A stretch of 887 bases of DNA from NCBI RefSeq assembly GCF_003334315.1, contig NZ_QOWR01000128.1; one strand, written 5' to 3'. Source of the DNA: Escherichia coli (GTDB taxonomy: Bacteria; Pseudomonadota; Gammaproteobacteria; Enterobacterales; Enterobacteriaceae). A program made the position numbers and the translations under genes. This document shows positions 1 to 887 of the stretch, in pieces. The notes under the pieces are model-generated. The model did no database searches and was not told where the DNA came from. It saw nothing but the letters and a program-made list of their open reading frames with translations. The stretch's first letter is position 1; the number at the start of each line of letters is the position of its first letter.

Positions 1-887
1 CCCTCAGCATGTGGCCGGATAACCGTATCGCCCGTGACGCGCACTATCTTTACCGGTATGACCGTCACGGCAGGCTGACAGAGAAAACCGACCTCATCCC
101 GGAAGGGGTTATCCGCACGGATGATGAGCGGACTCACCGGTACCATTACGACAGTCAGCACCGGCTGGTGCACTACACGCGGACACAATATGAAGAGCCG
201 CTGGTCGAAAGTCGCTATCTTTACGACCCGCTGGGCCGCAGGGTGGCAAAACGGGTATGGCGGCGTGAACGGGACCTGACGGGCTGGATGTCGCTGTCAC
301 GGAAACCGCAAGTGACCTGGTACGGCTGGGACGGCGACCGGCTGACCACAATACAGAACGACAGAACCCGCATCCAGACGATTTATCAGCCGGGGAGCTT
401 CACGCCACTCATCAGAGTTGAAACCGCCACCGGTGAGCTGGCGAAAACGCAGCGCCGCAGCCTGGCGGATACCCTTCAGCAGTCCGGCGGCGAAGACGGT
501 GGCAGTGTGGTGTTCCCGCCGGTGCTGGTGCAGATGCTCGACCGGCTGGAAAGTGAAATCCTGGCTGACCGGGTGAGTGAGGAAAGCCGCCGCTGGCTGG
601 CATCGTGCGGCCTGACGGTGGAGCAGATGCAAAACCAGATGGACCCGGTGTACACGCCGGCGCGAAAAATCCACCTGTACCACTGCGACCATCGCGGCCT
701 GCCGCTGGCGCTTGTCAGCACGGAAGGGGCAACAGAATGGTGCGCAGAATACGATGAATGGGGCAACCTGCTGAATGAAGAGAACCCGCATCAGCTGCAG
801 CAGCTTATCCGCCTGCCGGGGCAGCAGTATGATGAGGAGTCCGGCCTGTATTACAACCGCCACCGCTATTATGACCCGCTGCAGGGG
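1..887 (+). CDS. rhs: Rhs-family (YD-repeat) core protein, internal fragment from the C-terminal part of the conserved core; partial at both ends (codon phase begins at base 3)
   Basis: Manual translation of frame 3 gives 295 codons with no stop: [295 protein letters not shown]. Frames 1 and 2 hit stops within the first 80 bases (tga at 76..78, taa at 20..22). Recurrent YxYDxxGRL-type YD repeats and the terminal [15 protein letters not shown] segment are hallmarks of Rhs core proteins. The paralog (rhsA/B/C/D-like) cannot be assigned from this conserved core, so the symbol is family-level only. Confidence 0.93.
51..83 (+). other. YD-repeat unit (protein-level motif) [11 protein letters not shown]
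   Basis: Codons 17-27 of frame 3 read [11 protein letters not shown], a near-perfect match to the Rhs/YD consensus YxYDxxGRL(T/I). Confidence 0.8.
141..176 (+). other. YD-repeat unit (protein-level motif) [12 protein letters not shown]
   Basis: Codons 47-58 read [12 protein letters not shown]; YxYD followed by a basic residue and Leu, a degenerate YD repeat. Confidence 0.7.
216..251 (+). other. YD-repeat unit (protein-level motif) [12 protein letters not shown]
   Basis: Codons 72-83 read [12 protein letters not shown]; YxYDxxGR core of the YD repeat. Confidence 0.75.
318..353 (+). other. YD-repeat unit (protein-level motif, degenerate) [12 protein letters not shown]
   Basis: Codons 106-117 read [12 protein letters not shown]; aromatic-x-aromatic-D-x-x-R-L-T pattern with W in place of Y. 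Confidence 0.6.
678..716 (+). other. YD-repeat unit (protein-level motif, degenerate) [13 protein letters not shown]
   Basis: Codons 226-238 read [13 protein letters not shown]; a YxxDxxG(L) variant of the repeat. Confidence 0.55.
747..773 (+). other. YD-repeat unit (protein-level motif, degenerate) EYDEWGNLL
   Basis: Codons 249-257 read E-Y-D-E-W-G-N-L-L; YDxxGxL core. Confidence 0.55.
828..887 (+). other. N-terminal part of the Rhs repeat-associated core domain ([20 protein letters not shown]), truncated by the window end
   Basis: Codons 276-295 read [20 protein letters not shown]. The G-L-Y-Y-x-x-x-R-Y-Y-D-P-x-x-G segment is the conserved opening of the domain that, in Rhs and TcC-type proteins, continues into the DPxGL motif and the autoproteolytic site separating core from variable tip. 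The rest of the domain is beyond base 887. Confidence 0.8.

Follow-up and report, generated by a model that had tools for sequence, protein, structure and literature searches.

A predicted five-helix insertion in a hairpin turn of the Escherichia coli Rhs core shell

The Rhs core gene and its hairpin insertion

The analysed stretch of Escherichia coli DNA (887 nt of contig NZ_QOWR01000128.1, hereafter the window) lies within a gene for an Rhs protein, and the subject of this work is a segment of ~78 residues that is inserted in one β-hairpin turn of the Rhs shell. A single frame without stops (nt 3-887, plus strand, frame 3) accounts for 295 codons and corresponds to residues 921-1215 of a 1399-aa RHS element core protein; codon 1 of the window is residue 921, and positions marked aa are counted below from that codon. 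The record of E. coli STEC276 shows 100% identity to the window and is annotated "RHS element core protein", and its gene order, ybfA-rhs-ybfC, identified the rhsC locus. Of 5426 complete E. coli genomes, 3889 had a match to the window, and the median copy number per genome was 5. The 1399-aa protein scored 2638.8 bits against the NCBIfam equivalog RHS_core (NF041261, a profile of 1261 positions with a curated cut-off of 2000 bits), and its residues 1-1247 were colinear with positions 1-1261 of the profile. The window corresponds to profile positions 935-1229. Codons 129-225 (residues 1049-1145), in which a preliminary description had seen a non-repeat insertion between clusters of YD repeats, correspond to positions 1063-1159 without any gap, and because the match is ungapped there, the insert is a built-in part of the RHS_core family profile. 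PF03527 and TIGR03696 were found at the C-terminal end of the core, the latter matching residues 1170-1247 of the full protein, and are followed by a toxin that varies among homologues, which is the arrangement that defines RHS_core. The motifs DPIGL and DSMGL lie at residues ~1224-1245, beyond the downstream end of the window, and codons 129-225 stand ~85-180 residues upstream of them, at a hairpin turn. A scan of the window against Rfam gave no match.

The boundaries of the insertion were determined by phmmer comparison of the window protein with PDB sequences (Table 1). In the Rhs protein of Salmonella bongori (8qjc), residues 1193-1313 aligned with aa 8-141 and residues 1317-1385 with aa 224-292; since residues 1313 and 1317 are nearly adjacent in S. 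bongori, a turn that it makes with 3-4 residues is expanded in E. coli to ~80. In Tse5, an Rhs effector of Pseudomonas aeruginosa (8cp6_B, a chain that begins at residue 48, so that 47 was added to the chain index), residues 911-1031 aligned with aa 3-143 and residues 1058-1133 with aa 215-293. Both strands of the hairpin were recovered: TPLIRVET was aligned with GGFVPLLRLEQ of Tse5 and GSFTPLARYEK of S. bongori, and RKIHLYHC with RIAFFHT and HYTITD, respectively. The PF03527/TIGR03696 region follows shortly after the hairpin. Kielkopf et al. described the S. bongori loop 1312-1315 as the site of longer loops in other Rhs proteins (bioRxiv 10.1101/2024.02.26.582050), and it is at this hairpin turn of the shell, already known to vary in length, that aa 143-220 are inserted. 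The limits given in the preliminary description, nt 387-677, enclose this non-repeat part, but approximately the first 14 and the last 5 residues of that stretch are conserved shell β-strands. The interval does comprise 97 codons and ends at L225, whereas the peptide quoted for it was 96 aa long and covered nt 387-674.

Table 1. Coordinates of the features in the 887-nt window
Feature	Position (nt)	Residues	Strand	Basis
Lineage-specific insertion, ~78 residues	429..662	aa 143-220; residues 1063-1140	+	PDB alignments; AlphaFold2
Outgoing hairpin β-strand TPLIRVET	405..428	aa 135-142	+	Conserved across Rhs; AlphaFold2 strand 205-212 of the 400-aa target
Returning hairpin β-strand RKIHLYHC	663..686	aa 221-228	+	AlphaFold2 strand 291-298 of the 400-aa target
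Predicted helices H1 and H2	429..488	H1, aa 143-148; H2, aa ~154-162	+	AlphaFold2, pLDDT ~72; includes the invariant R-x-L-A of RRSLA
Predicted helices H3, H4 and H5	519..641	H3, aa ~173-188; H4, aa ~193-202; H5, aa ~206-213	+	AlphaFold2, confident core
GEDGG 5-residue indel within the Gly-rich loop	489..503		+	Alignment of variants
Three canonical YD repeats	24..272		+	Motif scan; Pfam RHS_repeat, TIGR01643; mutual recognition in hhalign; predicted β-hairpins
Degenerate YD-like unit WYGWDGDRL	318..344		+	Invariant in homologues; predicted strands
PF03527 'RHS protein' domain	669..779	aa 223-259	+	Pfam, E = 8.9e-15
TIGR03696 RHS repeat-associated core domain, start	750..884		+	Leads toward the C-terminal aspartyl-protease plug beyond the window
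10-nt direct repeat CGACCGGCTG bounding an interval	335..548 (copies 335-344, 539-548)		+	Perfect; copies 204 nt (68 codons) apart

Non-repeat character, predicted fold and conservation

The motif scan agreed with the preliminary description in that codons 129-225 contain neither YxYD nor YDxxG, nor even a plain YD. The nearest motifs are YRYD (aa 17), YHYD (aa 47) and YLYDPLG (aa 72) on the N-terminal side and YDEWG (aa 250), YD (aa 276) and YYD (aa 290) on the C-terminal side. The literal YD gap at this place, residues 994-1170 (176 aa), is the longest of the core, the median gap in the 1399-aa protein being 25. The strict motif is also missing from aa 79-128 and aa 226-249, which lie outside codons 129-225, and given the motif density of the flanks the probability of finding no YD in 97 codons is ~0.05. 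Upstream of the hairpin stands the degenerate unit WYGWDGDRL, with invariant alignment columns W176, Y177, G178, G181, R183 and L184. Taken alone, the number of motifs carries little weight; the feature is real because of the alignments to solved Rhs structures rather than because of that count. A second long stretch free of YD-type motifs was noted at residues 744-937 (193 residues by a loose pattern), and its end overlaps nt 3-50 of the window. Its C-terminal end is positioned like the 'Predicted Helical Region 1' of Tse5, just upstream of aa 3, and AlphaFold2 gave values below 50 for the predicted local distance difference test (pLDDT) at residues 900-921 (IPYATDPAGNRLPDPELHPDSTL). In Tse5 this region comprises residues 873-914 and was not resolved (PMC10684867).

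The composition of the segment differs from that of its flanks in a way other than first described. An enrichment in charged residues was not borne out, because D, E, K and R make up 23.7% of the segment compared with 33.6% of the N-terminal and 22.9% of the C-terminal flank. The real compositional mark is a scarcity of aromatic residues (5%, compared with 17–19% in the flanks), with Tyr occurring once in 81 residues of the stretch compared with 9–10% in the flanks. At the DNA level, G+C content is 64% in nt 387-677 and 59–60% in the flanks, and at third codon positions (GC3) 0.78 and 0.71–0.73, respectively; since this difference is slight and the entire core is GC-rich, composition provides no evidence for a recent insertion of DNA.

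Comparison with hhalign, Pfam and NCBIfam profiles did not align the segment to canonical YD repeats that have merely diverged. The repeat models RHS_repeat and YD_repeat (TIGR01643, PF05593) gave no match within aa 129-225 even at permissive E-values, and no repeat-profile match fell inside the segment in any of 22 homologues. An insert-only profile compared by hhalign with the upstream repeat region reached a probability of 0.07%; compared unit by unit, the insert gave P values of at least 0.06 and probabilities of at most 0.9% against every unit, whereas the three canonical repeats, which served as the positive control, recognised one another (P = 2e-5, 6e-4 and 1e-3), although the sensitivity of this comparison is limited and the degenerate WYGWDGDRL unit was also missed (P = 0.2–0.36). 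That the insert does not consist of YD repeats follows from three results taken jointly: the negative hhalign comparison, the existence of a solved shell that is complete without it, and the helices predicted as described below. The preliminary description was thus right to call the segment a non-repeat insertion, as supported by the profiles, by the absence from S. bongori and by the AlphaFold2 helices, but a plain loop gives way to a predicted folded five-helix module.

AlphaFold2 was run on residues 851-1250 (400 aa) with a 20-sequence alignment and, separately, on the insert with its two strands. The 400-aa model showed β-strands throughout the flanks and five helices inside the insertion, at aa 143-148, 154-161, 173-187, 193-201 and 206-210, and the same five helices were predicted when the insert was modelled with only its flanking strands. 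The core formed by H3, H4 and H5 had pLDDT values of 82–90 in context, the top confidence of the model, and of 85–87 when folded alone. Between H2 and H3 lies a Gly-rich loop (aa 161-172, nt 483-518), which has the lowest pLDDT of the insert (<50 at aa 166-168). The SGGEDGG string, present exactly where it had been reported (aa 161-167, nt 483-503), is accordingly predicted to be a flexible loop. A Foldseek search with the 400-aa model found Rhs shells, with Tse5 on top (E = 1.3e-20), while the isolated module gave nothing significant against PDB (best E = 5.7). Neither the sequence nor the profile of the insert found a PDB sequence below E = 0.45, and a Pfam search of the 22 homologues assigned no domain to the insert. 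Two weak Pfam matches to the GrpE coiled-coil domain among these homologues were taken as compositional. The module has a net charge of −3; the hydrophobic moments of its helices are moderate (0.39–0.48), and no helix has a mean hydrophobicity above 0.2.

Searched alone, the insert (82 residues) gave 130 matches among 1.84 billion representative proteins. The matches inspected were Rhs sequences, bar a few spurious compositional or repetitive ones, and the named cluster members belonged to Escherichia, Shigella, E. albertii, Salmonella enterica, Citrobacter freundii and Kluyvera, all of the Enterobacteriaceae. Three candidates for non-Rhs homologues were rejected as spurious: P0224, a repetitive protein of 1579 aa matched in one short region only, and P0245 and P0223, which are low-complexity or repetitive sequences. 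Among homologues of 52–99% identity the invariant residues were R, L, L, L, E, E, S and W-L-x-x-C-G-L, and the H3-H5 core holds L, E, E and S of these together with W-L-x-x-C-G-L. The insert is clearly under constraint. The GEDGG indel was present in 65 and absent from 31 of 104 unique variants (length classes 107 and 102), and this 5-aa length difference was confined to the Gly-rich loop. The insert accompanies the core whatever the C-terminal toxin domain, and many different toxin domains were seen.

Probable placement and possible roles of the predicted helical module

The closest counterpart of the insert in a solved structure is 'Helical Region 2' (HR2) of Tse5 (residues 1031-1062), a resolved, helical, solvent-exposed protrusion that is missing from RhsA and Rhs1 (PMC10684867). 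HR2 (PDB 8CP6) and the E. coli insert occupy the same turn, between strands of the form '...PG.F.PL.R.E' and '.I..(F/Y)H.DH.G.P'. HR2 is helical and the insert is predicted to be so, and Tse5 is the top match of the window as a whole both in sequence and in fold. The two differ in size (~32 compared with ~78 residues) and in character, the E. coli insert being acidic and HR2 Arg-rich and amphipathic. No sequence homology was detected between them by phmmer, in which aa 144-214 of the insert remained unaligned to Tse5. HR2 goes with one pore-forming toxin, in contrast to the insert, which is found on cores with many toxin domains, and the exterior position seen in the structure of Tse5 can only be presumed for E. 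coli. The PAAR-Rhs protein of S. bongori (PDB 8QJB/C/D) has the homologous hairpin with the same flanking strands at this length-variable site. Its turn of 3-4 residues leaves a smooth surface 'lacking protrusions and decorations', whereas E. coli-type cores carry ~80 residues there; Rhs shells from type VI secretion systems (T6SS) have been described as otherwise smooth (bioRxiv 10.1101/2024.02.26.582050).

We consider it likely that aa 143-220 form a clade-specific five-helix insertion in the turn of a shell hairpin, probably as a decoration of the outer surface. The ~78 residues inserted in this one β-hairpin turn would adopt a compact fold made up of five short helices, and the flanking PLIRVET and RKIHLYHC would stay ordinary shell strands. 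By positional homology with HR2, the module most probably sits outside the shell. It would remain on the conserved core through exchanges of the C-terminal toxin, would take no part in encapsulation or plugging, and would most likely act as a surface brace or offer a partner or the target envelope a place to dock. The exterior location is suggested because the one insertion solved at this turn lies on the outside and because of a volume estimate. The internal volume of the S. bongori Rhs shell is ~25,000 cubic angstroms (bioRxiv 10.1101/2024.02.26.582050), and a 78-residue domain (~10,000 cubic angstroms) together with the toxin of this protein, of ~155 residues (~20,000 cubic angstroms), would be expected to overfill it.

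Several observations weigh against this interpretation. The insert is more variable than its flanking strands, with a mean column entropy of 1.07 compared with 0.3–0.4. The AlphaFold2 models were moderate overall (mean pLDDT 63–67; predicted template modelling score 0.50–0.54), and the underlying alignments were shallow, consisting of 20–22 sequences, each with an identity to the query of 52% or more. With helices of only moderate amphipathicity and a net charge of −3, the sequence yields no specific functional clue. Finally, the exterior placement depends on one solved homologue, with a flank identity of 32% and no similarity in the insert itself.

The preliminary description had also offered a plug as one possible role. 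On this alternative the insertion would point into the lumen or toward the C-terminal opening and would, as a plug or latch, help to seal the shell or position the toxin. The location gives it some appeal: the hairpin belongs to the last part of the shell, right before the PF03527/TIGR03696 region that spirals into the C-terminal plug, the aspartyl-protease site is ~100 residues downstream of the insert, and the invariant residues indicate selection on the module. Rhs shells are known to be plugged at the N terminus and, at the C-terminal end, by the aspartyl-protease DPxGL region, and the insert lies outside both the N-terminal plug region and the DPxGL-x(n)-DPxGL protease segment. The same turn in Tse5 bears a resolved, solvent-exposed surface protrusion (PMC10684867), and solved Rhs shells are sealed without such an element, S. 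bongori having a 4-residue turn at this site. The cavity would also be too small for both domain and toxin, as estimated above. We therefore set aside the plug option and regard an inward-facing insertion as improbable.

We give similarly little credence to a membrane-binding role, in which the module would act like HR2 as an exterior element that docks the shell on the membrane for release or translocation of the toxin. HR2, which shares its hairpin position with the insert, touches the membrane in molecular dynamics and belongs to an amphipathic face of the Tse5 shell, and the hydrophobic moments of the predicted E. coli helices could be read in the same sense. HR1 and HR2 were reported to be missing from 13 homologues with enzymatic toxins and were linked to membrane delivery (PMC10684867). 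However, they are tied in Tse5 to a pore-forming toxin, while the C-terminal domains of the E. coli proteins are annotated as polymorphic toxin families; the insert has no sequence similarity to Tse5, and the role of HR2 itself comes from computational modelling. A net charge of −3 and the low hydrophobicity of all helices are unfavourable for binding to anionic bacterial membranes. Taken together with the moderate moments, these properties fit a soluble surface knob, of the brace or docking kind, better than a membrane anchor.

It is scarcely credible that the segment represents β-hairpin repeats of the YD/Rhs type that have diverged beyond recognition, with the shell wall simply running on: although the neighbouring WYGWDGDRL is a degenerate repeat that also fails in hhalign, which makes the profile test insensitive to decayed repeats, and the ends of the stretch are indeed shell strands, the S. 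bongori shell is complete in its crystal structure without these ~80 residues, AlphaFold2 placed helices in the insert at its highest confidence, and the near absence of Tyr and the uniformly negative profile comparisons in the homologues speak against decay.

An exterior helical module would also agree in concept with other shells built on YD repeats, to which the Foldseek search with the 400-aa model likewise gave matches. The TcB β-propeller of Tc toxins, the NHL, ABD and Tox-GHH domains of teneurins and the N-terminal clade domain of Tse15 all illustrate a conserved YD shell that accepts added non-repeat domains with encapsulation undisturbed. All of these are large domains at a terminus, or modules between domains whose partners are known, whereas the E. 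coli element is small and helical, lies within a hairpin and has no known partner or fold relative. Our literature searches found no description of it.

Variant forms and meaning for Rhs shells

The direct repeat listed in Table 1 bounds an interval that is missing from some database proteins. Nine protein clusters (P0101-P0104, P0107, P0108, P0114, P0120 and P0170) carry exactly the corresponding 68-codon in-frame deletion, with the junction WYGWDGD|RLESE and with differing toxin tips. Two strands of the shell are lost with it, as is the first half of the helical insert. A query with the junction revealed no deleted allele in the best 40 complete E. coli genomes, all of which carry the intact form, in a ranking that could not isolate one-piece matches; the deletion may be real and recurrent or may be an artefact of assembly. 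Other rearranged forms were seen in single-member or small clusters: part of the insert is duplicated internally in P0096, the downstream segment is repeated several times over in P0001, and P0093 has a deletion running from PGSFT to RWLAS. These are possibly pseudogenes or misassemblies of a multi-copy gene. The opposite strand contains an open reading frame of 188 aa (nt 297..863, minus strand) antisense to the Rhs frame. The plus-strand frame opposite it has a GC3 of 0.71–0.78, and the antisense frame is most simply explained as a shadow open reading frame of a GC-rich gene.

The practical importance of these results is small, given that the protein is a textbook E. coli Rhs core with a segment already contained in a curated profile, and that the insert would show in any public structural model. 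The earlier readings of the segment as a plug and as charged are corrected, and the exact boundaries of the module are useful for modelling or engineering E. coli-type Rhs shells. A more specific proposal is that the module serves as an exterior adaptor of the RHS_core proteins of Enterobacteriaceae, docking a secretion partner or a component of the target independently of the toxin. We regard it as rather unlikely. If true, it would make helical decorations at the HR2 site a general delivery device and not, as the Tse5 work had suggested, a speciality of pore-forming toxins, and it could be relevant to the action of Rhs proteins in E. coli strains such as K-12, which are not known to have a T6SS.

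For the family as a whole, the HR2-bearing hairpin emerges as a recurrent site for helical insertions, of which the enterobacterial one is even larger than that of Tse5. The presence of a larger insert at the HR2 site on cores with polymorphic toxin families qualifies the published link between protrusion, membrane and toxin. On the best reading, the E. coli insert joins the exterior decorations of Rhs shells, a kind of element already known.

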